Virus record (IMG/VR): IMGVR_UViG_3300027227_000004
Strand: one strand, 5' to 3'
Length of the DNA: 64,000 nt
DNA from: an uncultured virus (IMG/VR IMGVR_UViG_3300027227_000004)
Taxonomy: Duplodnaviria; Heunggongvirae; Uroviricota; Caudoviricetes
Part shown: positions 6,044 to 46,674 of the stretch, in pieces
Numbering within the stretch: the first letter of the stretch is position 1
Layout: each line of letters starts with the position of its first letter
Position numbers and translations under genes: made by a program
The notes under the pieces: generated by a model
Seen by the model: the letters and a program-made list of their open reading frames with translations, nothing else
Databases searched by the model: none
Told to the model about the DNA's origin: nothing

Positions 6044-6044
6044 T

Positions 6045-24278: not shown

Positions 24279-24471
24279 TCAATCCTCTGATACTTCTGAG
24301 GTAAAAGCAGATACTGTCGATAGTATTACTGTAAATAATATTCCGCCTTGGTTTATTATATTCTTTATGCTTTGGTCTTTATTTTTATGGGAGTTGCCAA
24401 GGCCAAGTGATATCGGCAGAGGTATAGGTAATTTTTTCCAAAAATACCTGACCTTTAAGAATAAAAGTTAA
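24052..24471 (+). CDS. Putative unimolecular spanin (lipoprotein with C-terminal TM), overlapping the holin
   Basis: Signal LALPLLLLVSTGMVSS-C, polar linker, C-terminal TM WFIIFFMLWSLFLW; start uncertain. Confidence 0.6.
   Translation: MLQWLKFLFGLRLALPLLLLVSTGMVSSCSKLPLGLLSGGTNVAANTQIGKTTNQNIGNTQNTEQKIVRPQARTINQSSDTSEVKADTVDSITVNNIPPWFIIFFMLWSLFLWELPRPSDIGRGIGNFFQKYLTFKNKS
24442..24461 (+). promoter_or_regulatory. Phage RNAP promoter inside the spanin 3' end, +1 G24459
   Basis: AAATACCTGACCTTTAA|GAA. Confidence 0.8.
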
Positions 24472-24595: not shown

Positions 24596-24615
24596 TATTA
24601 CCTGACTTTTAAGAA
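24596..24615 (+). promoter_or_regulatory. Phage RNAP promoter for the head operon, +1 G24613
   Basis: TATTACCTGACTTTTAA|GAAG. Confidence 0.75.
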
Positions 24616-24930: not shown

Positions 24931-26499
24931 ATGTCTCAAATTAAACAACCTATGAAGAATTATAAGAAGAGTGTTGCTGATCCTACTTCAAAGTATCATT
25001 CTCTTGTACCACTATGGAAAAAATCAAGAGCCATCTTGCAAGGGCAAGCTAACGCTAAAGCGCATGATGATGTTCTCTTAAGCAACAATACAAATCTTCT
25101 GATCCCTTTTTCTCCAAGTATGACTGGAGCACAATACGAGTTTTATAAGTCCGAAGCTGAACTTCCGGGTTTAACTTCTCAATATTGTAAAGTTCTTATT
25201 AGTGCGCTGTTGAGAAAAGAATCACAAATGCGGCTACCAAAAGATCTTCCTGACGAGGCTACCAACTGGATTAAGAATGAGTTTACCGCTGAAGGTAAAT
25301 CCATTTTTAACTTTTTAGACAATGCTCTATGGGAAGAGCTTCAGACTTCTAATGCTTGGGTCTATGTTGATCGTCCTTCTGTTTCTGATGAAGAATACGA
25401 CATGATGTCTACCGAGGAACGTGATACAATTAAACCCTATCCTGTTCTTATTCAAGCTGAAAATGTTATCAACATTCAAACAGCTATCCATCCTATTACT
25501 CGTAAGAAAACACTTACACGTTTCATCACTCGTTATCTTTCAGAAAACTTTAAACCAGATAATCCTTGGCATCCAGACTATGTTGATACTGTCGCCGATC
25601 ATTATCTCGATGAGTCAGGATATCTTGTAATCGACATCTATCAGAACAAAGATCCAAACTCTGAAGTTAAAGTTCTTAATGGTGAAGCAAGACAAGAGTA
25701 TCCAGTAGATGTTACAGAAGGTGGATTTGAAAAAGTTAACACTGTAGTCCCAATGTTCTTCGGTGAGAGACTCAATCGTATTCCTGCTTGGCCACTTAAC
25801 GGTCAGTTTGATTATGTTGAACCCGTTCTTATGCCACTTATCGATAGAGAAGTAGCACTTTACAATAAGGTTTCTCGTCGCAATCACCTGCTGTATGGCG
25901 CTGCAACTTATACGCCAGTTGTGCAGTCTGACATGACAGATGAAGAATTTGATACCTTAGTAGGTGCAGGGCTTGGTACATGGCTTCGTGTTCGCAAGGA
26001 TGAATCTATCACTGTTCTTGAAACACCTACAACTGCTCTTGCTGATATGGATAGAGCAATTACTGCTACTGTGGATGAAATGGCTAAGATGGGTATCCGC
26101 ATGTTGTCTCCTGAGATGGCTGCTTCAGGTGTTGCGCTAGAAATTCGTAATGCTTCTCAAACCGCACAGCTTGGTACACTCAATGCTAAAATCTCTGGTA
26201 CTATGCGTTCAATTCTTGCATTCATACTTAATTGGAAGTATAACACAAAGTATACAGCAGATGATATCGAGTTCCAACTATCAAGTGACTTCTCACCCAT
26301 GGTCGGTGGTGAAGGCGCTATGCGGCTCGTTTCCGAGTGGTATCAGAGTGGAATTATTTCTCGTGATACATTTATCAATATTGCAAAGTACAATGATTTC
26401 CTTCCCGCTGATTACGATGATGAAGCGGCAGTAGAACAGATTCAAACAGATCCTCTTGTTAATACTGTTCCAGACAATCAGATTGACTTGCAGCAATAA
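24931..26499 (+). CDS. Portal protein (DUF4055-like)
   Basis: 522 aa, precedes MuF/scaffold/capsid; C-terminal W..G.ISR.TF pattern. Confidence 0.8.
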   Translation: MSQIKQPMKNYKKSVADPTSKYHSLVPLWKKSRAILQGQANAKAHDDVLLSNNTNLLIPFSPSMTGAQYEFYKSEAELPGLTSQYCKVLISALLRKESQMRLPKDLPDEATNWIKNEFTAEGKSIFNFLDNALWEELQTSNAWVYVDRPSVSDEEYDMMSTEERDTIKPYPVLIQAENVINIQTAIHPITRKKTLTRFITRYLSENFKPDNPWHPDYVDTVADHYLDESGYLVIDIYQNKDPNSEVKVLNGEARQEYPVDVTEGGFEKVNTVVPMFFGERLNRIPAWPLNGQFDYVEPVLMPLIDREVALYNKVSRRNHLLYGAATYTPVVQSDMTDEEFDTLVGAGLGTWLRVRKDESITVLETPTTALADMDRAITATVDEMAKMGIRMLSPEMAASGVALEIRNASQTAQLGTLNAKISGTMRSILAFILNWKYNTKYTADDIEFQLSSDFSPMVGGEGAMRLVSEWYQSGIISRDTFINIAKYNDFLPADYDDEAAVEQIQTDPLVNTVPDNQIDLQQ

Positions 26500-26586: not shown

Positions 26587-29500
26587 ATGGATATTAATGA
26601 CAAAATTTACAGTCGTATTGTCGAGCACATGCTTGATGTTCGTTTATACGAAGAGGGCGTTCAGTTACAAAACCGCCGTATTATGACTCGTCACAAGGAA
26701 AACTTGTTTAAATTATTAAATAAAGATATTCGTGCCGATGTTAAAAAAGAAGCAGTAAGGTTTGCTAGAGAATTAGACTCGCACCTTGTTAGCTCTATCA
26801 AAGAATTTTCTACTTCTCAACTTTCATTTCATGCCGATAATTTCTACAAAGATGTAAAAGGCTTTTATAAGGTTGAAAAACCTAAAACAAAGGAACTACT
26901 TGAAGAAATTATTGGCCCTACGATGAAGGGTGAGAGAACACTAACTAAGAATGTCGTTAATATCTCCTCTGGAGAGTTAGTTAGAATTCAGACTAAAGTT
27001 AAAGCTGGTCTTGCTAATGGCAAGCCACCTAAAGAGATTATTGCTGATGTAATGCGGACAACAAAGCTTACTGAGGCACAGGCATCTACTTTGACTAGAA
27101 CAGCAATTACTAGTACACAGAGTGCGGCTTTAAATAGAGTTGTTCTTGCAAACAAGCCCCTGATTAAGGGTTATTTGTTTAGTGCTATTTTAGACAGTCG
27201 TACAAGTCCTATTTGTTCACATCACAACGGTAAAGTCTATGATGTTGATGATAAGCGGTTTGTTCCTCCTTTACATTGGAATTGCCGTAGTACGCTTATT
27301 CCTGTACTAAAATCAAAGACAGAACTAGCAGAAACAGATGCAAAAGAGATAAACAAAAAGGCGCTTGAAAAAGTAAAGCCAGAGTTACTAACAGGGGTTC
27401 CACCTAAGAGAGAATCCTTTGGTGAGTGGTTAAAAAGACAGACTTTTGATGTTCAGAAGAGTGTGCTTGGTGGTGAAGATAAGGCAAACATGTTTAGGGA
27501 AGGCAAGCTGAAATATGATCAGTTTATCACTCAAACAGGCAAAGCACTTTCTATTCAGGCATTAAGGTCTAAGGCTACACAATTAACTGCCGTGTTCAGA
27601 CCTAGACAGAAGCTTAGAGAAAAAGATACTATTATTAAGGTTTCTAAACCAAGTGTGTTAATTAGAAGCCCCGAGCATAAAGATGCTCTTAGACAGATGA
27701 TTCTTATGGACGCAGATGATTATAACAAAACGTTATCACTTTCTGATTATAAAGGCGTCACTCTTGCTGGTAAGCAGGACTCTAGGCGCAGAACAGGTAA
27801 TGTTTTTGATGAAAGAAACTTTTCAGCAGATCCTCTTACAGGTGAAATTAAAAATAACTTGATCTATGACCCAGACTTTAATTTACTACAAGAACGTATT
27901 GACTTTATGAAGGCCTCTAAACTCATCTCTTCGGAAGAAAAAGAGTTTATTGAGAGTGTTATTAGCGGCCTTGATGACAAGATTTCTGTCAATCAACAAA
28001 CAGTTATGGTTGAGAATTTAAGAGTTGTATTTGAGCGGTATGCTAAGGATAAAACTCCTTGGGAGGACTTTCCGGCTGTTGTTAGGGCTGAAAATAGATT
28101 CGCTGTTCAAAACGTGGCTAGATTACTTGATACAAGATCAAGAAAGAAATCTGAGCTTTTTCTAAGCTACATGAACCTTAAAGACGAAGTCCCTAAAGTA
28201 AATATCATGGGTAAATATTACTCGTTTGATGAGCTTCAAGAGAATCTGTTAAAAGATCAAAGATTTATTGATAACTGGAGAGCCAAGGATGGCGCCAAGC
28301 TAGCAAAGAAACTTTATTTCTCAGGAAGAACTCCGCTTAAAGTATACTTTCAAAGCTATGCTAACAAGTTTCCAACTCAAAAAAAGTTCGTTAAGAACAC
28401 TATGATGAAGTACCCGAGAATCAGTAGGGCTATCGTTGATCAACAAATCAAAGAGGCTCGCTCGATTAGTGACTTTGAGAAGGTAAAAAAGCTTAATGAG
28501 TTCCGAAAGGAGCTTGACAAGGCTACTGGAAATAAGATTATAGATAAAGTATACAATTTTATCTTTGAAGAAAAACCACCAACAGAAGCATTTATTACAA
28601 AGCTACTCAGGCTTGCAAGAGAGCAAGAGCGAAGGATTCTTGATCTAGAGTTCTTTTATGCTAAGAGGGCACCAAGTTCTCTTATCATGGATAATAAGTC
28701 CTTAGATACGATTACAAATGCTATTAAATTAGTTGCTTCGGGGCAGTCTACAGACTACGATTCCCTGGCAATCAATATTGGTAAGCTGTTTAACGATAAC
28801 TTTAAAGATCTATTCCCATTTACGTCTCATACCTTAAAAGACCATCACAAGATTGGGTCCGAGGTATTAGACTTTCTTAAACAAAAGGGTGTCATTAAAG
28901 TTCAATTTAGAGGTAAAGCTCGCAGAGGTGTAATTGATCTAGATACAGGTAGACCGTCTGGAGGTTGGGCAGAAACTATTTCAAGAGAAGTCATTGTTGT
29001 TGATAAACAAATTCTAAAGCTTCAAGAAGCAGAAAGAAGAGTTACAATTGCAAGACGTATTGGAACTGTAGAACCCAGAGATCAGCTTTATGTCAGGCCT
29101 AATGAAAAGGTATTCTTTGATGCTCGTGGTAATAAAACAGGTATTCCTATCATCTCAAGAGATAAGTTTCCTGACTATGATAAAGCTCAGATTGACCGTG
29201 ATATCGCTAATATGTTAAATCATGTTAGTAGCGTAGAGTATGGTGTTGATAACGAATTCTTTGACTTTATGGATGACTTACTCAGATTCAGAGACCCAAG
29301 GGGTAACTCTAAGTATTACGATTCTATCAACGAATTTAGACACGAGATTCTTAACCGTGGTGAACAGGGTTACGGCATGATGGCTACAGCAAAATGGCAT
29401 CGTATTCGGGGTAAAAACTTTAAGACTCAAGTCTTTATGGACTCTCGTGGCCGAGTGTATCACCGAGGTTATCTAACACCTACGGGGGGTGAGCTTGTTC

Positions 29501-31083
29501 GTCCATTTTTAAACTCAGGAAGAGCTATATCAATGTCTATTGACGCTGTAGATGAGCTTAGAGTTCAATTAGGCGCAATGATTGGTCCGGGGACAGAAGC
29601 TTTAACTCAAGCGGGCCGTAGAGAGATCTTTAGAAGAAATGAAAAGGGTCTTTTAGAAATCGGCGAGTTAATGATGGCAACCACTCAAAGAGATCGTAGA
29701 CTCCGTGAATTTCTTGAGCATCCTCTTGTCAAAGGCTTAGAAGGAGCTGAAGTTGCCAAAATGGCAAGGTTAGCCTTAGAATATACTAGGGTATATAAGC
29801 ATGTTAATGGAGATTTTGCAAATCCTCGGTTATTAAGCAGTTATAAAACAAAACTTATGATCGAGAATGACGCATCCTCTTCTGGTGCTCAAATTATTGC
29901 CTTATCAACTGGTGACAGACAAATTGCACAGGTATCCAATGTTGTTGCTACTACTCAAAAGAACAGGCTATATGACCTTGTTGCGATGGATACAGTAAAT
30001 GATCCTGAATTCCTTAAAATTCCATCGCTAAGAGATGCTAACCTAACTTGGGAAGATCTTGCAAAAGCTGCTAAAGCACAAAACATGGTCTCATTTTATG
30101 GTGCGGGTGCTGCTACTAAGACAGCAAATGTCTCTGCAAAATTGTCAAAAGTCCTAAACGAAAAAGGGTTTATTACTATCACTAAAGATCAGCTTGGTGA
30201 GCAACTTCGTATAGTTGACGGGCAAATTAAAGTAGCTGATAAGCTTGGTGCAGATGTTACTAAGTCTTCTCTAGAGGCATTTAGGAAAGAACTTATTGAG
30301 CTTGTTAACTCAGGGCAACCTGTTGGAAGAGAAATTTTGAAAGAAGCCTTGGAAATTCACCCTGATACTGCCTTGTTTGTAGAAAAGCTTACTAACGCAA
30401 GAACAGGGTTTGTAGGTCCGAAAGACTTTTCAGAGATTAATAGAATTATGTCTAAAAATCTCGCCCAAAGAGCACCTGTAACTGATGAGTTTATCACTTA
30501 TTGGAAAAGAGTTGCAAAGATATACGTTAATGAAACTCAGAAATCAGATATTCCATGGGTTACATTTGACGGTAAAGTTATGATGCAGAGGTATAGACCT
30601 CAAATTCAAGAAAGAATTGAGTTTACCGATCCAGTTACTGGTCGTAAAATTGCGAATATCTATGAAGATAGCGCAAAGGATGGTAGACTTATTGGTAAAA
30701 GTTCTCTAAACAGTGCAAGTATTGGTTTAGGAGTTAACGGAAACCATAGTAATGACGCAGTTATTGTTCGTAAGTTTCACTTGTGGGGCTTGAAGAATAA
30801 TGTGCAAACAGGTACAATCCACGACGCTTTTTTCACGAATATCGGAGAAGCTCGCCGTGCCAAAGACGCCCTAAGAACCATCTACGCAGATGCTCTTGAA
30901 GGCGATACAATTCGTAAAACTCTGGCAAAGATGAAAAAAGAAGGTCTTTCTGATAAATCTTACAGAGCATTGCTTGACGAAGCAAAACAATTAGGATTAA
31001 TTGATCCGCCTAATAAACTTACTAGAGCGGACATATTAGCCGACTTTAAAGAAGGAGAGGATTGGTATGGTATCGGTCCTTGA
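26587..31083 (+). CDS. MuF/SPP1 gp7-like head morphogenesis domain fused to a T7-type single-subunit RNA polymerase (candidate virion RNAP)
   Basis: N-term SAILDSRTSPIC...PPLHWNCRS (MuF); C-term DSRGRVY, NDASSSGAQ (motif A), KAQNMVSFYG (motif B), NGNHSNDA, IHDAF (motif C). Confidence 0.9.
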   Translation: MDINDKIYSRIVEHMLDVRLYEEGVQLQNRRIMTRHKENLFKLLNKDIRADVKKEAVRFARELDSHLVSSIKEFSTSQLSFHADNFYKDVKGFYKVEKPKTKELLEEIIGPTMKGERTLTKNVVNISSGELVRIQTKVKAGLANGKPPKEIIADVMRTTKLTEAQASTLTRTAITSTQSAALNRVVLANKPLIKGYLFSAILDSRTSPICSHHNGKVYDVDDKRFVPPLHWNCRSTLIPVLKSKTELAETDAKEINKKALEKVKPELLTGVPPKRESFGEWLKRQTFDVQKSVLGGEDKANMFREGKLKYDQFITQTGKALSIQALRSKATQLTAVFRPRQKLREKDTIIKVSKPSVLIRSPEHKDALRQMILMDADDYNKTLSLSDYKGVTLAGKQDSRRRTGNVFDERNFSADPLTGEIKNNLIYDPDFNLLQERIDFMKASKLISSEEKEFIESVISGLDDKISVNQQTVMVENLRVVFERYAKDKTPWEDFPAVVRAENRFAVQNVARLLDTRSRKKSELFLSYMNLKDEVPKVNIMGKYYSFDELQENLLKDQRFIDNWRAKDGAKLAKKLYFSGRTPLKVYFQSYANKFPTQKKFVKNTMMKYPRISRAIVDQQIKEARSISDFEKVKKLNEFRKELDKATGNKIIDKVYNFIFEEKPPTEAFITKLLRLAREQERRILDLEFFYAKRAPSSLIMDNKSLDTITNAIKLVASGQSTDYDSLAINIGKLFNDNFKDLFPFTSHTLKDHHKIGSEVLDFLKQKGVIKVQFRGKARRGVIDLDTGRPSGGWAETISREVIVVDKQILKLQEAERRVTIARRIGTVEPRDQLYVRPNEKVFFDARGNKTGIPIISRDKFPDYDKAQIDRDIANMLNHVSSVEYGVDNEFFDFMDDLLRFRDPRGNSKYYDSINEFRHEILNRGEQGYGMMATAKWHRIRGKNFKTQVFMDSRGRVYHRGYLTPTGGELVRPFLNSGRAISMSIDAVDELRVQLGAMIGPGTEALTQAGRREIFRRNEKGLLEIGELMMATTQRDRRLREFLEHPLVKGLEGAEVAKMARLALEYTRVYKHVNGDFANPRLLSSYKTKLMIENDASSSGAQIIALSTGDRQIAQVSNVVATTQKNRLYDLVAMDTVNDPEFLKIPSLRDANLTWEDLAKAAKAQNMVSFYGAGAATKTANVSAKLSKVLNEKGFITITKDQLGEQLRIVDGQIKVADKLGADVTKSSLEAFRKELIELVNSGQPVGREILKEALEIHPDTALFVEKLTNARTGFVGPKDFSEINRIMSKNLAQRAPVTDEFITYWKRVAKIYVNETQKSDIPWVTFDGKVMMQRYRPQIQERIEFTDPVTGRKIANIYEDSAKDGRLIGKSSLNSASIGLGVNGNHSNDAVIVRKFHLWGLKNNVQTGTIHDAFFTNIGEARRAKDALRTIYADALEGDTIRKTLAKMKKEGLSDKSYRALLDEAKQLGLIDPPNKLTRADILADFKEGEDWYGIGP

Positions 31084-31189
31084 TCTATTTACAGTTATAG
31101 TTTATTTGTAATAGCCTATAACTTCTATTTTAACGGGGTCTGTGACTCTAATCATATTAAACTCAGTCTGTGACTGGAAAGGATTATCA

Positions 31190-31933
31190 ATGAGTATTGA
31201 AGAATTAAAAGCAAATATCGCTGAAAAAGAACGTAATCTTGCTGCAATGGAGGAGGACGATGAGTCTTATGCTGCTGCAAAGGCTGAAGTTGATGCTCTT
31301 AAACAAGAGCTAGCAAAGGCAGAAAAAGGTGACGATACTAATAATACTAGCGATAAGAAAGATGATATCGAAGCTATTGTCGAAGAACGACTAGCTAAGA
31401 TGAAAGCTAATATGGACCGTATGGCCAAGGAGCGTGATGAAGCCTTCAAACTTAAAGCGGAAATGGAAAAGTCAAAGAAAGACGCCGACATTGCTCGCAT
31501 GAAAGAAGAAGGGAAGATTCAAGAAGCTCTCGAAATGGAATTAGCGGAGGCGAAAGCTAAGCTATCTCTATATGAACAAGATATCACTTCACTACGCCGT
31601 GATAGCGTTGTAAATGATGCTCTTGCTGGTCTTGAGTTCCGTAATGAGAAATCCCGAGAGATGGCTCGCCGAGAAATCGTAGATGACCTAATCCAAAACG
31701 ATCAGGGTCAATGGGTCCACAAAACAGGTTCTTCAATTAAAGACTTTATTGAGTCCTACGCTAAAAACGAAGATAACTCCTTCCTGTTCCGTATTAAAGC
31801 TAATACTGGCGCAGGTACTAACACTTCTGCTGGCGTCCCAAATACAACACCTAAGAAATCAATTCTTGAGATGTCAACAACAGAAGTACTAGATCTGGCT
31901 AAGAAAGGTCAGTTAGGTAACTTTAAATATTAA
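31190..31933 (+). CDS. Head scaffolding protein
   Basis: Charged coiled-coil, directly upstream of MCP; AAGGA RBS before ATG 31190. Confidence 0.8.
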   Translation: MSIEELKANIAEKERNLAAMEEDDESYAAAKAEVDALKQELAKAEKGDDTNNTSDKKDDIEAIVEERLAKMKANMDRMAKERDEAFKLKAEMEKSKKDADIARMKEEGKIQEALEMELAEAKAKLSLYEQDITSLRRDSVVNDALAGLEFRNEKSREMARREIVDDLIQNDQGQWVHKTGSSIKDFIESYAKNEDNSFLFRIKANTGAGTNTSAGVPNTTPKKSILEMSTTEVLDLAKKGQLGNFKY

Positions 31934-31957
31934 CTATAAATAATAGGATTAAATAAA

Positions 31958-33076
31958 ATGGCTATTACAAACACAGATTTTCAGTCAGTAGCACTCGCAA
32001 TTTCTGCCTATGCAGACGAAGCCTACACCACTGAGCGTAAACTAAACTCAACTGGTATCGTTGGTCAGCGTAGCGATATTACCGCAGATGGTGAATCATT
32101 CATTGGTCAATTCCGTTGGTACAAGCCCCTATCAGCTAACATCAACGTTCCTTCACTAAGCAACGCTGCTGCTGGTTCATACACCGACATCACCACTGAC
32201 ATTGCAAACTATGTCAAGACTGTTCGTACCTTTGGTGCGCAGCAAGTAAACCTTCAGGAAGTCGTAACCAAGCAAGATGGTCTTGCTAAGATTGCTCGTG
32301 ACTTTGCTCAGGTTCGTGGCGAAGATGAAGGCAATGCACTTATGGCCGTCCTAAAGGGTGTTTCTGCTTCTGAAGTTGCTCTCGGCGATGCAGGTGGTTC
32401 AGGTAACGGTGGTATCGTTGACTTTGATACTGATGCAGATGCTTCTGCAACTGGTTTCTTCGTAGATGTAAATGCTGCTGGTGCTTTCGGTGCTGCTGCT
32501 ACTGGTTCTTCCGACGCACGTCGCCTCTTCGACTCTACCGCTATCGGTGCTGCTCGTGGTGAGCGTCTATTCCGGGCTATCGGCATGGGCTTCAAAGACT
32601 ATGAGCCTGCTTACATGTATCTAGTAACTTCACCCGAAGTTATGGCTGAGATGCGTGCTGCTAACCTCGTTGACCAGACTAAAGTTCAGGATGGTAACCT
32701 TGAGTTTGACACCATCTTCGGTGGTAAGTTCCGTCTAGTCATGACCCGTGCAAACCAGATGCTCTCTGGTGCTGCTACTGGCGACCTAAACGCACAATCA
32801 ACCAAGTGCTCATTCATCATCAAGCCTTCTTCAGTCGCTGCTGCTGGCGTTATGGTTCCAACTCCTGTTGAAGTTGACCGTGACCCTGCTTCCTACACTG
32901 GTGGTGGCTCAACCAACATCTGGTATCGTTATGGCTTCATCATGCACCCACAAGGTTATGACTGGGCGGGCGCTACTAACGCTTTCGCAACCAATGCTAA
33001 CTACGCTGCGGCTGCTTCTTGGACTCGTAAGATGGACTACCTAAACCTAGGTATTCTCCCAGTCTTCCACTCATAA
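31958..33076 (+). CDS. Major capsid protein
   Basis: 372 aa, strongly biased codons, C-terminal R..FIMHPQGYDW...W.R pattern, position after scaffold. Confidence 0.88.
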   Translation: MAITNTDFQSVALAISAYADEAYTTERKLNSTGIVGQRSDITADGESFIGQFRWYKPLSANINVPSLSNAAAGSYTDITTDIANYVKTVRTFGAQQVNLQEVVTKQDGLAKIARDFAQVRGEDEGNALMAVLKGVSASEVALGDAGGSGNGGIVDFDTDADASATGFFVDVNAAGAFGAAATGSSDARRLFDSTAIGAARGERLFRAIGMGFKDYEPAYMYLVTSPEVMAEMRAANLVDQTKVQDGNLEFDTIFGGKFRLVMTRANQMLSGAATGDLNAQSTKCSFIIKPSSVAAAGVMVPTPVEVDRDPASYTGGGSTNIWYRYGFIMHPQGYDWAGATNAFATNANYAAAASWTRKMDYLNLGILPVFHS

Positions 33077-33092
33077 TTATTAGGAGGGGCTA

Positions 33093-33599
33093 ATGGCACT
33101 AGAACTAAACACAAATAGTTATGTAACAGTAGATAATGCTGATTCATACTTTGAAACTCGTATTGATAGTGCCGCTTGGTTTGACGCTTCAGATGAGGTT
33201 AAAGAACAAGCATTAGTTACTGCAACTCAGCTTGTAGATGACAATGCTTGGATTGGCTCTGCTGTTAGCCCTTCTCAGGCTCTGGCTTGGCCTCGTAAAT
33301 ATGCAATCTACTACGATCAAAGATTAGGTCAAGAGATTTCCTTCTCTGTTACCGAAATTCCAGAGAGGCTTAAGACTGCTATTTACGAGCAAGCATTACA
33401 TCTTGTTAATAATGAAGATCTTTTAGCTGGAACTACTCAGACCTTTGAGTCGATTTCTATTGGCAACATTAGTATTTCAGACTCTAATAATGATGTTACA
33501 AGAGTTCCGATGAAGCCATCTATTGTCATGAAGCTTATTAAGCCACTAATCAAGGTTGGTGCTAGTGGGCTTGGTGCAGGCTGGTGGAGGGCCAACTAA
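33093..33599 (+). CDS. Head-tail adaptor protein
   Basis: NSYVTV..AD.YF ... QALAWPR ... IP..LK.A..EQAL motif. Confidence 0.8.
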   Translation: MALELNTNSYVTVDNADSYFETRIDSAAWFDASDEVKEQALVTATQLVDDNAWIGSAVSPSQALAWPRKYAIYYDQRLGQEISFSVTEIPERLKTAIYEQALHLVNNEDLLAGTTQTFESISIGNISISDSNNDVTRVPMKPSIVMKLIKPLIKVGASGLGAGWWRAN

Positions 33600-33937
33600 T
33601 GTCATTAAAGCGCAAACTGCAGGCAGCAGTAGATAAGGCGTTTAATGCAGCTGGAGATTTGAAACTTTCCGGAAAACTTCTAGGGGAAAAAGTAACAGGT
33701 TACGACTTAACGCTTGGCGAAGTTGTAAGCACTCAAGCAAAGACTTTAAACCTAAAAGTTATCCTAACAGAATCATCAAAACAGGATGACTCTACAACAA
33801 CCTATTCCGCCATTATTAAATCTGGGGTAGATCTATCAGTTTATAAGTATTTGCTGGTAAACTCACTACAGTATAAAATTAATGGCTTTGACGATAACGG
33901 CTTCGTTATCACTATTTCATTGTCACGGGAGGTATAA
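33599..33937 (+). CDS. Head closure/joining protein
   Basis: Size and synteny. Confidence 0.6.
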   Translation: MSLKRKLQAAVDKAFNAAGDLKLSGKLLGEKVTGYDLTLGEVVSTQAKTLNLKVILTESSKQDDSTTTYSAIIKSGVDLSVYKYLLVNSLQYKINGFDDNGFVITISLSREV

Positions 33938-34327
33938 ATGTTTACAACCGCACTTCGTGATATTGAGCTTAGACTAGCAACCTTTTCAACATCAGTTATG
34001 TACCCTTCAGACTATCAGGGCAATATTGCTAATGATTCTGAGTTTTGTAGATACACTGTACTTCCTTCTAACGCTGATGTATATAATAATGATAGAAATA
34101 AACATATCAGTGGTATCGTAATTATCGATATTTTTGTAGAAGCAGGAAAAGGCCAAAATAGGGCGTTTCAAATTGCAGATGCATTGAATCAAGTTCTTGA
34201 AAACAAGATTCTTACAAATAAAACAGAGCTTGGGGTTTCTTACCTCAATTATGATGGGCAAGATCCGGTTAATCGGTCTCTATCAAGATACAAATATATC
34301 ATACCATTTAAACTATATGGAGAATAA
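33938..34327 (+). CDS. Tail terminator protein
   Basis: G.VIIDIFV.AG.G...IAD.L pattern; precedes tail tube. Confidence 0.7.
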   Translation: MFTTALRDIELRLATFSTSVMYPSDYQGNIANDSEFCRYTVLPSNADVYNNDRNKHISGIVIIDIFVEAGKGQNRAFQIADALNQVLENKILTNKTELGVSYLNYDGQDPVNRSLSRYKYIIPFKLYGE

Positions 34328-34330
34328 CAA

Positions 34331-34861
34331 ATGGCACATATTTCAAGCCTTCAGGCAGGTGTCTATTCCTACCTAGACATTTACACTGGTGCAACTGACA
34401 CTGCAGCTTTTGACGAGCTAAACGAGTGGGCAACTGTATTTAACGCTGGTTCAACCACTGGTGTTGTACGTATGCCTTCAGTTCGTGAATTCCCTTCAGT
34501 TGGTACTCCTGCAAACATCGTAAACGTTCCTGTTTACGGCCAAGCAACTTCTTCACAGATTCAGGGTCAGGCAGATGCGCCTTCACTCGAAATTACTGTG
34601 AACTACGTTGCTGCAGACATGCAGGCAATTCACGCTCTCATCGGTAAGCAGGTCGCTTTCCGCTTTATGATGGCAGCTGCTCCACTAACACTAGCACAGT
34701 CTTGCGCTGCAACTATTGCTGCTGAAAACACTGAATTCTTCTTCAACGGTAAAGTTGAAGCTATTCTTGTTAACCCACAGCTAACAGATGCAACCACTGC
34801 GACCGTTACTCTTTCTGCTCAGTCAGACTTCTTCGGTCCATTCACAACTGCTGCACCCTAA
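34331..34861 (+). CDS. Major tail tube protein
   Basis: FPSVG...VNVP.YG...QIQGQADAP; high-expression codon bias; precedes chaperones. Confidence 0.8.
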   Translation: MAHISSLQAGVYSYLDIYTGATDTAAFDELNEWATVFNAGSTTGVVRMPSVREFPSVGTPANIVNVPVYGQATSSQIQGQADAPSLEITVNYVAADMQAIHALIGKQVAFRFMMAAAPLTLAQSCAATIAAENTEFFFNGKVEAILVNPQLTDATTATVTLSAQSDFFGPFTTAAP

Positions 34862-34878
34862 TAGCTGACGTTAAAGAA
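34859..34878 (+). promoter_or_regulatory. Phage RNAP promoter, +1 G34876, followed by a hairpin
   Basis: TAATAGCTGACGTTAAA|GAAG. Confidence 0.85.
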
Positions 34879-34923
34879 GAGAGGGGGAGAGATCCCCTTC
34901 TCTATCCTTAGAAAGTATTACAT

Positions 34924-35163
34924 ATGATAGATAAACCATTTAGCAAAGCATTCGTTATGCGAACTACATTCAAGCATATGAAGCGTAGTGTAGATATTAG
35001 TATTGGAAAGTCATTTGAACGTTTTCAAGATTTTGATAACGATTCACAAACAGGGAAAGAGATCATGGAAACCCTTTCTGTTCTCCACACTGTACGCAAA
35101 ATGCTTGATGACTTTCAAGTAAACAACCCAGAGATCTTTGAAGAAAAAGACCGTATTAAATAA
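34924..35163 (+). CDS. Hypothetical protein
   Basis: ORF track, downstream of promoter. Confidence 0.65.
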   Translation: MIDKPFSKAFVMRTTFKHMKRSVDISIGKSFERFQDFDNDSQTGKEIMETLSVLHTVRKMLDDFQVNNPEIFEEKDRIK

Positions 35164-35177
35164 GTAAGGAATATATT

Positions 35178-35486
35178 ATGAGCATGAAGAAACTAGTTGG
35201 CAAAAGCATCACAAAGTCAGTAGATTTTATGGGTGATTCAGTAGAGATTAAAAAGCTATCTGTTGCTGAAGTGATGGAAATTCAGAACACAGTCAAGAAG
35301 TCTGCAAAATCTGAAACAGAAACAGCACAAATGGCACTACTACGTAAAGTAATCCGTATTGCCGTAAAAGATGCAGAAGAACTAACAGACGCAGACTTTG
35401 ATACTTTTCCTCTAGATGAACTATCTAAGCTCTCGGAAGCAATTATGGAATTCTCTGGCCTTGGTGAAAAGAACGAGGGAAACTAA
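35178..35486 (+). CDS. Tail assembly chaperone (gpG-like)
   Basis: Ends in slippery G GGA AAC TAA; between tail tube and TMP. Confidence 0.85.
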   Translation: MSMKKLVGKSITKSVDFMGDSVEIKKLSVAEVMEIQNTVKKSAKSETETAQMALLRKVIRIAVKDAEELTDADFDTFPLDELSKLSEAIMEFSGLGEKNEGN

Positions 35487-35836
35487 CAAGAGAAGAAGAA
35501 ACGATATACCAAATTGCTTTCTTTTTAGGCATTCCAGTATACAAGCTATTAGATGAAATGCCATATACCGAGTTTTTAAAGTGGATTACTTTCTTTGAAC
35601 AACAACCTTATGGTTGGAGAGACGACTACCGAGCAGGTGTTATTGCTCAGTCTATGGGGCTAAAGGAACCACTTGAGAACGTATTTACATCTATCAGATT
35701 GCTAAAAGCAGCAGAAGAAAACTCTAAGAAGCCTGATCAAGCATTACCAAAAGGTATTATGTTAGAGAAGATGCTTAAGGCTAAATCTGGTGATTCACTA
35801 TCAGTATTGGGGTGGCTAAATGGCAGTGAAAGTTAA
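35477..35836 (+). CDS. Tail assembly chaperone -1 frameshift extension (gpGT-like)
   Basis: -1 frame from GGGAAAC (35477-35483) is open and in frame with the 35558-35836 ORF (MPYTEF..W..FF...PYG). Confidence 0.85.
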   Translation, partial: GKLTREEETIYQIAFFLGIPVYKLLDEMPYTEFLKWITFFEQQPYGWRDDYRAGVIAQSMGLKEPLENVFTSIRLLKAAEENSKKPDQALPKGIMLEKMLKAKSGDSLSVLGWLNGSES

Positions 35837-36152
35837 TTTAGATGTCGTTGACTTCGAAAAAGAAATTAAAAGGGTTGAGCGAGAGATTGCTCAACTTGCT
35901 AACCTTGAAATTAATGAGCGAATAGAGTATGCAACCGATACTCTTCGTGTGGTTACTCCTGTTGACACGGGGGAAGCAAGAGAAGGTTGGGAAAATATAA
36001 AATATAAAGAAAATGACGGTTACTTAGCTGGTGAAATAGTTAACGAAGTTGAGCATATTGTTTACTTGAACAATGGTCATAGTCAACAAGCTCCTCGTTA
36101 CTTTATCGAACAAGTTCTAGTTACTGTTGGTGTTTTAACACCCGATGAATAG
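35820..36152 (+). CDS. HK97 gp10-like tail completion protein
   Basis: TPVDTG.AR..W ... YLNNGHS.QAP..F motif. Confidence 0.8.
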   Translation: MAVKVNLDVVDFEKEIKRVEREIAQLANLEINERIEYATDTLRVVTPVDTGEAREGWENIKYKENDGYLAGEIVNEVEHIVYLNNGHSQQAPRYFIEQVLVTVGVLTPDE

Positions 36153-36156
36153 TCTT

Positions 36157-36206
36157 GGCCCCTTGATGGCATCTCATAATCGAGATACTGTCTTGGGGCT
36201 TTTTTA
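36157..36206 (+). terminator. Terminator/attenuator-like stem-loop before TMP
   Basis: GGCCCC...GGGGCT stem with inner pairing, then T-run. Confidence 0.55.
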
Positions 36207-36221
36207 TTAAGGAGGTCTAAT

Positions 36222-39200
36222 ATGACTGGTATAAAAATTAAAGTACGGTCAGATAGTACACAAGCACGGGCTGATTTAGGAAGACTAGAAAACTCGGTAA
36301 AGAATATTGAAGCTTCAGCTAACCGTGTATCTTCTGCATTTAAGGCAATTACAGTAGGTGCTTCTGTTTTATATTCTGTTAACAAGCTCTCAAAAGCATT
36401 TATTAATGCAGGAGATTCTGCTAGAGAATTGAGAAGTAGAATTAAGCTTGTTACTGGTGAAGGCGAACAATTAAATATTGCTATGGATCGCCTCTCTAGA
36501 ATTGCTAGAAATACCCGTGTTCCTATGGACACAACTGCGAATACCTTTAATAGATTTGGTCTTGCTCTAAAAGGAACCAAAGTCCAAGCTCAAGATCTTT
36601 ACAGAGTAACTGAGCTTGTAAACAAAACTCTAACTATTTCTGGTACTTCTGGTGCTTCTGCACAAGCCGCCCTTGTTCAGTTTGGACAGGGTCTTGCTTC
36701 TGGTACATTAAGAGGTGAAGAACTTAATTCTGTTTTAGAACAAGCTCCAAGGCTTGCTCAAGCAATTGCCGATGGGATGGACCTCCCTCTTGGCAAACTT
36801 CGTGAAGTAGCCAAAGATGGTAAGATCACTACAGAACAAATTTTACAGGCACTTCTTGGTCAAGGATACTTAATCGATCAAGAGTTTAAGCTTATTGAAA
36901 AGACTGTAAAATCAGTATCCTATGCGCTGAATAGTCAGTTTACAAAAGCATTAGGAAAGATTGATGGCACTCTAGGTTTTTCTTCTAGAGTAATCAAAAC
37001 TATTGAGAATATCACTGACTACTTATCAAGATTTAATGATGAATACTCGTTAACAATTGCAGGTATTAGATTAGAGGCAGTAATTCTCGCAGGTAATCTA
37101 GAAAAAGCATTCCTAGGGATTTCTGATATCCTATTATCAGCTTTCAATGTTGATGTATCTCAAGTTGGTAGAATATTAAAATCAAAAATAGAGGAAATCA
37201 CATCTTTAATAAACATTCCTACAATTGAACTTGACCCTAGTAAACTGCTTTCAAAACTAAACAAAGAGCTAAAAGCTGTAAAAGACTCTGGAGTTCTAGG
37301 ACCAAACTCAAAGGCACCTGGATTCAGAGATATTGTTGACGATTCTTCATTCGTTTCAGCTATTACAAACTTACAAAGTATCGCAAATAAGATTCAAAGT
37401 ATTCTTGTAAGCATTGCTGGCTTCTTTGACGATCTATACATGAGCGTTGTTGGTAATACATCTTGGCTTGATACCTTTACTAATGCAGGTAGTGTGGGGG
37501 ATGAAGCTCATCTTGCTAAGTTTAAAGAAGTAAGAGATAAAATCGAAGGCGTAATCGATACAATTATTACGTTCTTCTCAAAATTAAAGTCAGGTGCAAT
37601 TGATAAGTGGGAAGCTCTTAAGTCTTCTTTGTCTCAAGCTAAACCTGTAGAAGATCTAAGTAATCTTCTTACCTCCATGAATGACTCAAGTAAAGGTCTT
37701 ATTACAAACCTTACAGATCTTAGTGAATTAGACTTTAACTTTGTGCCCTCTCTTAAGGGGGTCTCGAAAGAACTCGACAAGTTAAAATCATCAGGATTTC
37801 TTAACAACTTTGGTCTTTCTTTTGATGAGGGTGTAGTTAGAAATCTAGGAGATGGAATTAGAAAATTTGTTAGAGATTACTTTGGTTATACTGCACTTAT
37901 TACAGAGGCACCGGGGCTTCAATACGAAGAATATACTCCGGGGAAAATTCAAATAGCATTCCAAACAGGACTAGTTAAAGCATTCGATAATGCTGTTTTA
38001 ATTGGGGTGGCTACTTTTATTGGCGCTTTTGCCTATAAGTTTCCTGAAGCCTTTAAAGGTACGCTATCTCTAATCGGCCTAGGTCTTGGCTTAGCTTTTA
38101 TTCAAGCTATTCCAAAACTACTTCCTATTGGTTTAATTCTCGCAAGCATTACCCTACTACCTAACTTCTTAGATGAACCAGAAGAGCAAGCTAAAGTTAA
38201 AGCTGCCGCAAAGAAAATTACAACTTTCCTTAAGGATTCTCTTATTGGAGACGGTGAAGTCGGCGCAGGGCTATTAGAAGTTCTTCTTAAAACTTTTGAG
38301 AGTGTTGGTGCAGGTGTTGCAGAAGCATTTGGTTTTAATTTAACTTCTTCTCTTAACGCTGTTGTAGGTGGACTAATTCTTGGTACTGCTGTTAATAGAA
38401 AGTTTGTTCCTAATCTAGTTAAAATTCTAATTGGTGACAATGGTGATGCACTAAGCAAAGGCTTACAAAAGGCGTTCAGAAAAGGGCTTGCAGCTGTTGC
38501 TCTAAGCTTTACTGGTGAAGCAATTGCGGAAGGATTAGGTTTTGCTGGTGTAGGTGAGAATATTGCTAATGCAATAGGTGATACTCTTGAGTCGGCACTC
38601 TTACTAAGTTTTGGTAAACTAGGTAATAAAGCAAAAGGGGGACTCTTTGCTATTGATCTTGCAGGAAATGTTATCGATGCAGCTGGCTACGGTAATGATT
38701 TTACTGACGCAATTGGTGACGGTGTTAATGCAGCTATTACTGCTGGATTCTTTACAAAGAACCCTTGGATAGCACTTGGTGCTGGTCTTGCAGTAGCTAT
38801 TACTTCAGGCCTTTCTAAGATGTTTGGTATTGAGCTGCCAACTACCATTGATGATTTCTTAGCTCTCTGGGATAGATTAAAAGATCCTGCTGTTTGGCAA
38901 GGCATTGGAGATGCTATAAATACTGCTATTTCCTCAAGTCTTTCTGCTATTGATTCAGGTGTCAAAGCTGTTGTAGATACTGTATCAAGACTAAAAGAAA
39001 CAGTAAAACTTGCATTTGGTATTAGCTCTGCTCAAACTTACGATGAGTTAACCACAAAACCCATTGCATTAACTGATCAAGGATTGCTTAATGCAAGAGA
39101 GCTTCAGGTTAACAAAGCTTCTGATGTAATTTCTGAGAAAACAAAAGAGCTTGAGGAAGCTAAAGCTAGATATGATAATTTTGCTAGAAAACTAGGTGAA

Positions 39201-41090: not shown

Positions 41091-41091
41091 C

Positions 41092-41394
41092 ATGAAGAAG
41101 TGGGGAAAGCTATTTGAACTTAAAAACGGTCAATTAGTTTGGAAGGTGTCCCGTGGCAGAACAGCTGCGGGGCAACTTGCTGGTACTAATCATGGTGATG
41201 GCTACAAGACTGTCAGAATTGATGGTAAGGCTCGCTATGTACATAGGATCGTTCAGGAAATGAAAACAGGAAAACCTGCTAATGGTTTTGTTGATCATAA
41301 AGATCGTAACAGATCTAATAATAAACCTAAGAACCTTCGAGAAACTTCTCGTTCTGAAAACAACAAGAACAGAAAGTCTTGGAAAAAGAAATAA
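41092..41394 (+). CDS. HNH endonuclease
   Basis: YVHRI...VDHKDRNRSNNKPKNLR. Confidence 0.88.
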   Translation: MKKWGKLFELKNGQLVWKVSRGRTAAGQLAGTNHGDGYKTVRIDGKARYVHRIVQEMKTGKPANGFVDHKDRNRSNNKPKNLRETSRSENNKNRKSWKKK

Positions 41395-41399
41395 CAATT

Positions 41400-41427
41400 G
41401 GTCATCCCTTTGGGGATGGCCTTTTTT
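41400..41427 (+). terminator. Intrinsic terminator ending the late region
   Basis: GGTCATCCC TTTG GGGATGGCC TTTTTT. Confidence 0.85.
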
Positions 41428-41472
41428 ATTAAATGAGTCTAGAATTAGACGGGCTTTGTGGCTATAAAAAAG

Positions 41473-41497
41473 TGAGAAAATTATAGCATCTATAATG
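41473..41497 (+). promoter_or_regulatory. Early-island promoter-like motif, copy 1
   Basis: TGAGAAAA-N5-GCATCTATAATG, repeated with the same spacing at 43624. Confidence 0.65.
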
Positions 41498-41540
41498 ATA
41501 CAATAAAGTATCACAGGCAAAAAGCTTAAAGGAAAATCCA

Positions 41541-41648: not shown

Positions 41649-41674
41649 TAACCTTAATCACAAAGGGAAATAAA

Positions 41675-43620: not shown

Positions 43621-43623
43621 TTC

Positions 43624-43648
43624 TGAGAAAAACAACGCATCTATAATG
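43624..43648 (+). promoter_or_regulatory. Early-island promoter-like motif, copy 2
   Basis: TGAGAAAA-N5-GCATCTATAATG. Confidence 0.65.
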
Positions 43649-44258: not shown

Positions 44259-44276
44259 TAGCTGACCTTAAAGAAC
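44256..44276 (+). promoter_or_regulatory. Phage RNAP promoter, +1 G44273
   Basis: TAATAGCTGACCTTAAA|GAAC. Confidence 0.85.
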
Positions 44277-44511: not shown

Positions 44512-46674
44512 ATGACAGTACTAGACAAGCTAGTAGAAGACTTGACATACCGTATAAATACTCTTGATAATCGCAATCGGGCAAGTTATATTAAGGCTAT
44601 GCCAGCCAAAGATATTATTGAGTTTTCGTACACTCATGTACTAAAAGGATTAGAAAGGAAAGCATCACTAGTAGAGGTATCAACAAGTATTGGTCGTCGG
44701 TTACGACAGAAAATGAGACTTGAACAAGACAGTATTCTTGAGGCTCAGGGTGGATGGTTCGTTTTAATCTCTTATATCGAAGTAGGTATACTCGGCTATA
44801 AGAAGAAACACATGTATAAGAACGGTAAGAAAGACAAACACAGATCTTACAGTTTGTTTGCATCAGACTGGAAAGCTATTAAGGAGCTAATGGATCTTGT
44901 TGACAATGAAAAGTGTGACATGTTTCCAGTCAACACTCCACCAAAATCGTGGGACGGATCTGCTTATCATCAAACCACAGGTATTAGTGTAATTAAGAAA
45001 GGCCACTCATTAGCCTTAAATTACTTTGAAGCTAATGATATGAGTTATATTCTCAAAGTTCTAAACAAGCTAACTTCAACAGCTTGGCGTATTAACGAGC
45101 CTGTGTTTAATGTGTTCAAACAATGTTTACGGTCAAAAGAGAACCCTTTCAAGTTTACGAAGGAAATTGATCCAATTAAACGGGCTTCGTTGATTATTGA
45201 AGTTGAAGCAATTGAAAGACTAGCGGAGAAGAATCTCGGGCTACCGTTCTATCACCTCTACAACTTGGATTTCCGTGGTCGAATCTACCCTAACACAGCC
45301 TTTTTGCACGAGCAGTCAAGCGACAATGCTAAGGGATTGCTCTTACTCGATGAGCCTGTTAGGCTTGGAGAAACTGGCCTCTACTGGTTATCCGTTCATA
45401 CTGCAAACTCGTGGGGTAATGACAAGGTTTCTCTTGACGACCGTGCTCAATGGGTTCAAGATAACTTAGACGACATCCTGATTTATGCAAGCGATCCTAT
45501 GCGTTATACAGGCTGGATGAGTGCGGATAAACCGTTTACTTTCCTTGCCTGTTGTATGGAATTTTCTATGCTCTCTCACTGGCATGGTCAGGGTATGGAA
45601 ACAGAAGACTTCCCTAGTTGTTTGCCAGTTTACATCGACGGTTCTAACAATGGTGTTCAGCACCTAGTTGCTATGTCTCAAGATGAAGAGGTAGCTCCTC
45701 TTGTTAACCTAGTTCCACAAGAACTTCCCGGTGATGTTTACATGTTCATTGCTAACAAAGTCTGGAGAAGACTTCGAAGTATGCAAGACAAGTTACCTAA
45801 CGGGCTTGTTGAAAGCTTTGACACGGTATTTGACGAGGCTAGACGGCTTCAACGAGAGTATGATGCAGCTTCTGACAAGTCAGAACGCAAGACAATTGCC
45901 TTTCGAGAGGCTCAATCTTGGCGTAATGAGAATCGCAATCTTAGAGAGAAACTCTTTCCTGTATACTGGAATCGAATCACTGACAAGAAAATTCGACGAA
46001 AGACAGTTAAGCGTAACGTTATGACTCTTGGTTACGGTGGCACGGCTTATGGTATGGGTCAACAAGTTATTGAGGATACACGAGAACTCTCTGAATATCT
46101 TCGAGATAAAGAACACTTGTGGGGAGCTATGCTGGGCACTTTAGTATACAAGACTTGTTACGAAGAACTTAAAGGACCAGCTACTTTACTGAGCATGTTC
46201 CAAAAGTTAGCTGAACGGGCTAATGACGACAAGCTTCATTTAAAATGGCAATCCCCAATCACTAACTTCCCCGTAGTACAAGCTTACCTAAAGCCAATTA
46301 CAAAGCGAACAGAGCTTAAATACGGCGATGACATTTTAAAAGTCAATATCCAAGTGTGGGAAGAAGCTGTAATTAATGAGTCTAAACAGCGAACTGGTGC
46401 AGCACCTAACATTGTTCATAGCTTAGATGCTGTTCATTTGACAAGTGTTGTTCACGATTCTAATTATCTTGTTACTGTTGTTCACGACTCTTTTGGTTGT
46501 CATGCAGGTAACATGGAAGATATGTTTATGCTTGTTCGTGAGAAGTTTGTTGAGCTTTATGAGGCTCAACCGCTTGAGAACATTTTAACACAACTTAACT
46601 CAAAAGATCTTATCCTAGAGAAAGGTACACTAGATGTCCGACAAGTCTTATACTCCGATTTTGCATTCGCTTAA
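44512..46674 (+). CDS. T7-type single-subunit DNA-dependent RNA polymerase
   Basis: DFRGRIY, DGSNNGVQH (A), RKTVKRNVMTLGYG (B), PNIVHSLDA, VHDSFG (C). Confidence 0.97.
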   Translation: MTVLDKLVEDLTYRINTLDNRNRASYIKAMPAKDIIEFSYTHVLKGLERKASLVEVSTSIGRRLRQKMRLEQDSILEAQGGWFVLISYIEVGILGYKKKHMYKNGKKDKHRSYSLFASDWKAIKELMDLVDNEKCDMFPVNTPPKSWDGSAYHQTTGISVIKKGHSLALNYFEANDMSYILKVLNKLTSTAWRINEPVFNVFKQCLRSKENPFKFTKEIDPIKRASLIIEVEAIERLAEKNLGLPFYHLYNLDFRGRIYPNTAFLHEQSSDNAKGLLLLDEPVRLGETGLYWLSVHTANSWGNDKVSLDDRAQWVQDNLDDILIYASDPMRYTGWMSADKPFTFLACCMEFSMLSHWHGQGMETEDFPSCLPVYIDGSNNGVQHLVAMSQDEEVAPLVNLVPQELPGDVYMFIANKVWRRLRSMQDKLPNGLVESFDTVFDEARRLQREYDAASDKSERKTIAFREAQSWRNENRNLREKLFPVYWNRITDKKIRRKTVKRNVMTLGYGGTAYGMGQQVIEDTRELSEYLRDKEHLWGAMLGTLVYKTCYEELKGPATLLSMFQKLAERANDDKLHLKWQSPITNFPVVQAYLKPITKRTELKYGDDILKVNIQVWEEAVINESKQRTGAAPNIVHSLDAVHLTSVVHDSNYLVTVVHDSFGCHAGNMEDMFMLVREKFVELYEAQPLENILTQLNSKDLILEKGTLDVRQVLYSDFAFA

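Follow-up and report, generated by a model that had tools for sequence, protein, structure and literature searches.

A MuF-type head protein fused to a T7-type RNA polymerase in an uncultured phage: a candidate capsid-delivered transcription enzyme

The stretch of DNA analysed here, 64,000 nucleotides (nt) long and hereafter called the window, is the IMG/VR record IMGVR_UViG_3300027227_000004 of an uncultured virus of the Caudoviricetes. It reads as a single phage genome in which every recognisable gene lies on the plus strand, as do the parts of the fusion and the promoter-like motifs described below. One uninterrupted open reading frame (ORF) at 26587..31083 encodes a protein of 1498 amino acids (aa) that joins an N-terminal MuF-type minor head protein to a C-terminal RNA polymerase (RNAP) of the T7 type. 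Directly 5' of this gene is the portal protein gene (24931..26499; phrog_145, E 4.8e-42; PF13264 in homologues), and the scaffold gene (31142..31933) and the major head protein gene (31958..33076), which correspond to phrog_206 and phrog_247, lie on its 3' side. The single frame between the portal and the scaffold and capsid genes, described by an initial annotation made from the sequence and its ORFs, is thus confirmed. That annotation had proposed that MuF loads the polymerase into the capsid. Our analysis leads us to the same view: with a probability of about 65%, the fusion is a capsid-loaded and injected early RNA polymerase, loaded through its own MuF part.

By sequence similarity, the N-terminal part (aa 1 to ~624; 26587..28458) is a minor head protein of the MuF/SPP1 gp7 type. 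Phage_Mu_F (PF04233) matches aa 134-238 (nt 26986-27300) with an E value of 1.1e-15 (58.7 bits, cut-off 29.6), and the "head morphogenesis" family phrog_241 matches aa 48-624 (E 7e-55); MuF is therefore present, as initially annotated, and extends well beyond the ~250 aa then assigned to it. C210 and C233 of the MuF motif are invariant. The two halves of the fusion were modelled separately, each with an alignment of relatives. The model of the N-terminal half (660 aa) reached a predicted local distance difference test score (pLDDT) of 84.9 and is confident to about residue 580 and low beyond. It has 77 matches in BFVD at E<=1e-3, nearly all of them head morphogenesis or minor capsid proteins and among them MuF-ADP-ribosyltransferase and MuF-zeta-toxin fusions; a Foldseek search of the same model against the PDB returned no solved structure at E<=0.001. 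Prediction of a complex between the portal and MuF aa 1-345 scored 0.00 in both runs, which carries no weight either way.

A variable linker (aa ~601-700; 28387..28686) separates the two parts. It is marked by low confidence in both models, with a pLDDT of 51-70 from about aa 581 in the N-terminal one and of 47-66 in the first 60 residues of the C-terminal one. Moreover, binned identity to the orthologue of the cultured phage DSS3_VP1 is 7-37% over aa 601-720, compared with 40-87% in the polymerase and mostly 50-73% in MuF, which identifies this region as a variable linker.

The C-terminal part (aa 701-1497; 28687..31077) is a single-subunit RNA polymerase of the T7 type according to Foldseek, VIA-align, PF00940 and phrog_414. 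RNA_pol (PF00940) matches aa 1084-1452 (E 1.3e-6; 28 bits, cut-off 22), so that both Pfam families expected from the initial annotation exceed their cut-offs, and phrog_414 "RNA polymerase" matches with an E value of 8.6e-20. The model of this half (859 aa) has a mean pLDDT of 84.2 and a predicted template modelling score of 0.79. Its top Foldseek match is T7 RNAP (1cez_A, E 5.7e-18), and VIA-align superimposes it on the T7 elongation complex 8dh5_M with a Z score of 30.5 (root-mean-square deviation 3.6, 521 residues aligned) and on the T7 promoter complex 1cez_A with a Z score of 25.6 (621 aligned). The match covers palm, fingers, thumb and most of the N-terminal domain. In the alignment to 1cez_A, model residues 62-858 pair with T7 residues 107-883, indicating that the T7-specific N-terminal domain is also present; the fold thus spans ~800 aa, and not only the ~600 aa first assigned to a polymerase whose identity as T7-type is upheld. 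Z scores are ~28 to mitochondrial RNAPs and 19.7 to the N4 mini-vRNAP (3c3l_A).

All catalytic motifs of the T7 family are found, at the nucleotide positions initially reported. The T/DxxGR motif DSRGRVY lies at aa 952-958 (29440..29460), motif A DASSSGAQ with the catalytic Asp1095 at 29869..29892, motif B (K1163-x7-Y1171-G1172) at 30073..30102, and motif C IHDAF with His1412 and the catalytic Asp1413 at 30817..30831. Across an alignment of 37 family members, whose identity to the window protein ranges over 49-100%, D952, R954, G955, R956, D1095, K1163, Y1171, G1172, H1412 and D1413 are invariant (37/37), as is the Y of DSRGRVY; in the numbering of the C-terminal part, the motif A, B and C residues are D456, K524, Y532, G533, H773 and D774. 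A single-sequence phmmer search with the whole protein against the PDB gave no meaningful match. The family profile reaches T7 RNAP in the PDB (E 5e-5), aligning DgRGRvY to T7 MDWRGRVY (residues 421-425), DasssGaq to T7 D537 (FDGSCSGIQ) and ihDaf to T7 IHDSF (H811, D812). Motif B was assigned by position and by the K-to-Y spacing of 8, which is the same as that of what we take to be its T7 counterparts, K631, Y639 and G640. On the model and these residues, the polymerase part keeps a complete T7-type fold and catalytic centre and is apparently active; we infer that it synthesises RNA.

The fusion is a property of a family. Two cultured roseophages of the Naomviridae, DSS3_VP1 and DSS3_PM1, give full-length tblastn matches at 59% identity, and their orthologues are labelled "head morphogenesis" or "minor head protein-like protein". 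A search of a large protein collection found 390 homologues at E<=1e-3 among 7998 candidates scored; in the 120 best clusters, 116 consist of proteins of 1402-1602 aa with PF04233, 97 of these also having a recorded PF00940. Together with the two cultured phages, these clusters answer the search for the architecture that had initially been suggested. MuF is retained even in members at 24-26% identity (P0185, P0204, P0222, P0235), and an identical fusion protein occurs in another viral record. An exhaustive search of the representatives of 1.84 billion proteins yielded just 136 matches at E<=1e-3, and the polymerase part is therefore a distinct and divergent clade. Nucleotide megablast of the fusion gene against a phage collection returned no match. 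The unfused state is seen in Pelagibacter phage Kolga, where a 633-aa MuF protein lacks a polymerase and a T7-like RNAP stands on its own.

The fusion gene of EBPR siphovirus 1 seems to be divided into gp47 and gp49 with an HNH endonuclease between them, and a group I intron-like element interrupts it at 9179-10039 (L002). The break falls inside motif B (...KAAKAQNMV / TFYGAG...), and the insert begins with a match to the group I intron family RF00028 (40.5 bits, E 1.2e-8, below the gathering score of 50). Many metagenomic relatives are likewise called as two pieces, an N-terminal one of ~1110-1180 aa that ends at the same point and a C-terminal one of ~330 aa. Homing elements typically occupy the most conserved sites of essential genes, and we count the putative motif B intron of EBPR siphovirus 1, recognised from its sequence, as support for an intact and conserved enzyme.

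Cysteine content sets the fused polymerase apart from the other enzymes of the phage. The fusion has only two cysteines, both in the invariant MuF motif (C210, C233), and the 859-aa polymerase part has none in 36 of the 37 family members, the window protein included. At the frequency found in the cytoplasmic enzymes (32 in 2572), ~11 would be expected; the free RNAP has 7, the DNA polymerase 8, the primase-helicase 8 and the ribonucleotide reductase 9. Virion proteins of the same phage are poor in cysteine (tape measure 0 of 1622, fibre 0 of 769, portal 1, capsid 1). By its lack of cysteine, the fused polymerase thus falls among the proteins that exit the cell.

Elsewhere in the window lies the gene of another, free-standing T7-like RNAP of 720 aa (RNAP2; 44512..46674; PF00940, E 8.2e-81; phrog_414, E 1.9e-132), on which the initial annotation is silent and which is 57% identical to DSS3_VP1 gp080 "RNA polymerase". 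RNAP2 and the fused polymerase are barely alignable (BLASTP E 0.05), and hhalign of the fused-family profile against RNAP2 was not significant (probability 0.4), though DxRGR and motif A line up. In a distant clade (L049-L053, 53-54% identity), the RNAP2 match extends over 2899 nt (6001-8899) as against 2160 nt, which suggests an insertion (intein, intron or extra domain).

A T7-style promoter-like motif, aaTA(C/G)CTGACCTTAAAGAA, also written TAATAGCTGACCTTAAAG with the core CTGACCTTTAAGAA or ATAGGGTGCGTTAAAGA, has 15 matches in the window, all on the plus strand, where 0.90 are expected; none of 100 shuffles reached 15. It shares the length and layout of the T7 promoter. Two copies lie ahead of the portal/MuF-RNAP operon, at 24448..24461 (1 mismatch; context aaATACCTGACCTTTAAGAA) and 24602..24615, and one lies 250 nt upstream of RNAP2 (44262..44275); the remaining pattern matches are at 2975, 9338, 16019, 31040, 34865, 47018, 50152, 53860, 57146, 57340, 59067 and 61112. 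The motif precedes both structural and replication genes. It comes in two sub-types, one before structural genes (2975, 9338, 16019, 24448, 24602, 31040, 34865), continued by AAG or AAT, and one in the replication half at 44-61 kb (44262, 47018, 50152, 57146, 59067, 61112), continued by AACAA, which are reminiscent of promoter classes that differ in timing or strength. The DSS3_VP1 counterpart is a different sequence, aATAGGgTgCGTTAAAGA, with 10 copies on the plus strand and none on the minus strand.

The layout of the T7-style motif points to a region that it does not serve and that ends with the RNAP2 gene. No copy was found at 34879-44261 of the window or at 29406-45934 of DSS3_VP1. In the six relatives with 6 kb upstream of RNAP2 and a match to the strict pattern (L015, L016, L017, L022, L031, L037), the first copy lies ~170-200 nt past the RNAP2 stop and none lies upstream (6/6). 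In T7, too, the polymerase gene ends a motif-free region and the first promoter motif follows it. Since no T7-style copy precedes RNAP2 in these relatives, another polymerase must make RNAP2 there.

The gap in the window contains a second promoter-like sequence, the early motif AAGTGAGAAAAnnnnnGCATCTATAATG, in two copies where shuffled sequences give an expectation of 0. Copy 1 (41470..41512), an exact match to the family motif, reads AAGTGAGAAAATTATAGCATCTATAATG followed by the hairpin GATAC-AATAAA-GTATC and stands just past a terminator-like hairpin at 41400-41421; copy 2 (43621..43648; 3 mismatches) is 864 nt upstream of the RNAP2 start codon. The early motif is exact in 31 of the 67 loci examined (of which L003 and L004 overlap on one record). 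DSS3_VP1 carries the identical motif at 35793 and 36240, directly after its tape measure gene; a k-mer search of that genome missed the two copies, and a pattern search recovered both. The motif is thus identical between phages with ~58% protein identity and differing T7-style motifs.

The conserved block, with the elements AAGTGAGAAAA...GCATCTATAATG, spans ~30 positions among 47 unique instances, which remained of 50 after three (L035_5837, win_12499, win_61522) had been dropped as false positives. From the G after TATAAT, 33 of the 47 form a perfect covarying hairpin of 5-6 bp (shuffles: mean 3.6, maximum 10), with at least six different stem sequences. N4-like phages use hairpin-containing early promoters; the hairpin described here may, or may not, be of that kind. 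In many relatives a further conserved block, CCAAGTGGAAAC, is found 8-15 nt past the hairpin. The early motif holds a perfect TATAAT, lacks a -35 element (AAAAGT at 17 nt) and lacks TGn; a host sigma-70 polymerase could therefore read it, as happens with the early genes of T7. Sigma-70-type scans of three regions showed no enrichment (23 against 24.8 expected, 16 against 16.8 and 9 against 16.2), and Rfam at its gathering threshold found a tRNA alone in the window. We tentatively assign the early motif to the fused enzyme, for which it would be a concrete candidate template.

Three small ORFs with good ribosome-binding sites (~35, 25 and 65 codons) follow early motif 1 at 41542-41967, within a 620-nt stretch that otherwise appears non-coding; at least one looks hydrophobic, and they are candidate first-expressed genes. 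A separate repeat, TTA(A/G)ACGGGCTTTGT (TTAAACGGGCTTTGT), occurs with up to 1 mismatch at 41445, 42009, 45176 and 50994. Two of these copies lie in non-coding DNA of the early region, the other two within the genes of RNAP2 and DNA polymerase; the repeat is not conserved in DSS3_VP1.

Taken together, these data suggest a cycle of transcription by two polymerases. Late in infection, RNAP2 would transcribe the portal/MuF-RNAP/scaffold/capsid operon from T7-style promoters. The MuF part would then direct the fusion into the procapsid through the portal, in few copies as with SPP1 gp7, and the polymerase part would be carried along on the flexible linker. During the next infection, the fusion would exit with the DNA and transcribe the early region (~41.4-46.7 kb, including the RNAP2 gene) from the two conserved early promoters, after which RNAP2 would turn to the replication and structural genes with their ~15 T7-style promoters, including those of the fusion operon. 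The computational tests that the initial annotation had named all favour a MuF-loaded polymerase; portal binding, packaging, ejection and activity are predicted. A wider claim is more tentative, somewhat short of an even bet: that MuF-RNAP proteins form a second independent lineage of T7-family virion RNAPs, tethered to the portal and injected by long-tailed phages, which use a nearly invariant 30-nt early promoter with a hairpin and start a host-independent cascade of two polymerases.

Several points weigh against a capsid-loaded, injected early polymerase. The protein of 170 kDa would need to pass through a long tail (the tape measure of the window has 1622 aa). In its available excerpts, PMC6316719 states that SPP1 gp7 supports the initiation of infection and does not state that it enters the cell. 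In EBPR siphovirus 1 the fusion is present but no early motif within 3 mismatches, and reading of the early motif by the host polymerase could leave the fused enzyme without its proposed job. The window's own clade has the extra T7-style copy at 44262 upstream of RNAP2, from which RNAP2 could amplify itself. Finally, the polymerase part stands alone in 4 of the 120 best clusters (833-1180 aa); these may be free forms or truncated gene calls.

The perfect -10 hexamer of the early motif also lends itself to another explanation, in which the fusion is packaged and injected mainly as a motor that pulls in the genome or as a replication primer, and the host polymerase reads the early promoters. T7 RNAP is known to pull in the genome of its phage, and polymerases of the T7 type also prime replication. 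Coupled DNA translocation and transcription has been proposed for fused virion RNAPs by Chaban et al. (in the part of PMC10770324 available to us). However, the motif has neither a -35 element nor an extended -10, its ~30 conserved positions exceed what sigma-70 needs, and sigma-70-like sites are not enriched in the three scanned regions. We therefore consider a motor or primer role unlikely as the main one, and it overlaps with the early-polymerase reading in any case, since pulling DNA by transcription needs a promoter too. It is less probable still that the fusion is not delivered at all and acts in the producing cell, as a late-gene polymerase or a portal-located factor coupled to packaging, or is cleaved from MuF before or during assembly. 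The gene does lie in a late structural operon behind T7-style motifs, the variable and poorly ordered linker could contain a cleavage site, and the few clusters with the polymerase part alone would fit. Yet MuF and polymerase stay in one frame in 116 of the 120 best clusters and in relatives at only 24% identity, the PHROG matches of the head module include no recognised head protease gene, and the late genes already have T7-style motifs, which suit RNAP2, the canonical enzyme. Moreover, a complete loss of cysteine is unexpected for a cytoplasmic enzyme when the other phage enzymes keep 7-9.

The polymerase part might instead be a catalytically dead remnant that binds DNA and serves as a structural or DNA-anchoring module in the head. 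SPP1 gp7 is DNA-binding, judging by the title of a work cited in the excerpts of PMC6316719, and the similarity to T7 RNAP is low (28 bits in Pfam, no PDB match with single-sequence phmmer). We regard a dead remnant as very improbable because all 37 members, across 49-100% identity, share the catalytic residues and the tyrosine responsible for ribonucleotide selection in T7 RNAP; furthermore, the whole fold is kept and a putative homing intron targets motif B. An assembly or gene-calling artefact that wrongly joined two adjacent genes has next to no probability. Contigs of four out of four marine metagenome runs cross the MuF/RNAP junction without joints or indels, as the chimera check proposed in the initial annotation had called for; these runs may be the source of the window DNA and so give no independent support. 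The fusion is also present in two cultured, fully sequenced phages, in the 116 homologue clusters, which come from several sources, and, as an identical protein, in a second viral record. With no evidence in its favour, the artefact was rejected.

As a carrier of cargo, the MuF part has clear precedents. SPP1 gp7 reaches the procapsid interior through targeting by the portal, and a C-terminal toxin cargo is ascribed to gp7-like proteins (PMC6316719 and PMC5512222, both in excerpt). MuF-toxin and polyvalent fusions resemble the window protein in having an N-terminal MuF part, encoded near the portal gene, and a C-terminal cargo in one polypeptide. They differ in that their cargo is a toxin or an effector that modifies the host, whereas the window fusion carries a transcription enzyme for the phage's own DNA. 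"RNA polymerase" has no occurrence in the MuF-toxin paper (PMC5576092), and the excerpts of PMC5512222 describe no MuF-RNAP fusion.

As a virion polymerase, the fusion can be compared with two known systems. N4 gp50, an ejection protein, has its RNAP domain between an N-terminal and a C-terminal one (PMC13434306, in excerpt). Like the window fusion, for which this is predicted here, it is a T7-family polymerase inside a larger virion protein, and a second phage polymerase follows it. However, gp50, at ~3500 aa, comes from a podovirus that has ejection proteins of its own, whereas the window protein has 1498 aa and a MuF carrier, and its phage a long tail; gp50 has a large C-terminal domain, whereas the window protein begins with MuF and ends with the polymerase, whose fold is closer to T7 RNAP (Z 30.5) than to the N4 mini-vRNAP (Z 19.7). 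The fusion would thus work in the manner of the N4 virion RNAP, and it is not a member of that family, from which it differs in size, domain order and nearest structure.

Among long-tailed phages, Thermus phage P23-45 offers the nearest precedent in concept: its gp96 is a virion RNAP that is fused to the tape measure and serves the pre-early genes, among them that of a second, non-virion RNAP, gp64, and the phage has two promoter classes (PMC10770324, in excerpt). A long tail, an RNAP fused to a structural protein, a second polymerase and two promoter classes are shared with the window phage, in which they are predicted from sequence. The P23-45 enzymes are two-barrel polymerases related to cellular RNAP and carried by a tape measure, whereas the window enzyme has the right-hand T7 fold and a head protein as carrier; the double-psi beta-barrel core of P23-45 gp96, crAss-like and phiKZ/AR9 polymerases is absent from it. 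T7 RNAP itself, the best structural match of the fused polymerase, is not packaged, and the host polymerase reads the T7 early genes. Unlike T7, the window phage has two T7-family enzymes that look unrelated to each other.

Within the Naomviridae, DSS3_VP1 gp108 is the orthologue of the window fusion (59% identity over the full length) in a genome with the same portal/fusion/scaffold/capsid order, the same early motif and a second RNAP. DSS3_VP1 and DSS3_PM1 are roseophages with deoxyuridine (dU) in their DNA, and their fusion has been annotated as a head protein only. "RNA polymerase" appears 0 times in the main texts on this family, namely PMC8323127 (family), PMC12669031 (2025 single-particle study) and PMC12697855 (dU enzyme). 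The initial annotation knew of no characterised example, and our literature searches of open-access papers and bioRxiv, with supplements outside their range, found no description of a MuF-RNAP architecture. MuF cargo is known for toxins and effectors; a polymerase as cargo is apparently new, in that we could not find it described.

To our knowledge, virion RNAPs come from a handful of lineages, the N4-like, crAss-like and jumbo phages and Thermus phage P23-45. If our reading is correct, a T7-type enzyme delivered by an ordinary MuF protein would be a simple and modular route in long-tailed phages, and MuF would be seen to carry large enzymes in addition to toxins. On the wider claim of an independent lineage, MuF would be a general loading adaptor for both kinds of cargo, and the marine Naomviridae, an abundant group with dU-DNA in its cultured members, would bring their own transcription, in parallel to the unrelated dU-phages AR9 and PBS2, which bring multisubunit enzymes. 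The family is widespread in metagenomes and has cultured roseophage members with a tractable host, for DSS3_VP1 Ruegeria pomeroyi DSS-3, which makes the proposal directly testable. If the polymerase is active, orthogonal expression tools could be built from the two compact polymerases and their promoter candidates, which are short and distinct.

The window also has ORFs for a dCMP-deaminase-like protein (60164-60526), a MazG-like protein (53155-53439) and a nucleotide kinase (49460-49894). A tblastn search of the DSS3_VP1 genome with the deaminase-like ORF gave no hit at E 1e-5, and the window DNA occurs in ordinary metagenome contigs at a depth of 8-40, which together make dU substitution in the window phage uncertain.

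Elsewhere in these genomes, an HNH endonuclease gene (41092-41394) abuts the tape measure gene of the window, and an ORF between the exonuclease and primase-helicase genes (54325-54801) has "NAD synthetase" as its top PHROG match and homing endonucleases as weaker ones; in DSS3_VP1, the large terminase gene is interrupted by an endonuclease VII gene. The ends of the window resemble each other as an imperfect repeat with an offset of about 62.85-62.9 kb, positions 1-112 being identical (100%) to 62900-63011 and 455-710 matching 63302-63557 at 89%, and the two phrog_37819 ORFs within these ends (starting at 456 and 63303) differ from each other. A terminal repeat, a wrap-around into a variant copy or a pair of paralogues might account for the similarity. 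A portal homologue with 75% identity (P0264) is labelled Paracoccaceae bacterium by NCBI, which hints at the host group.

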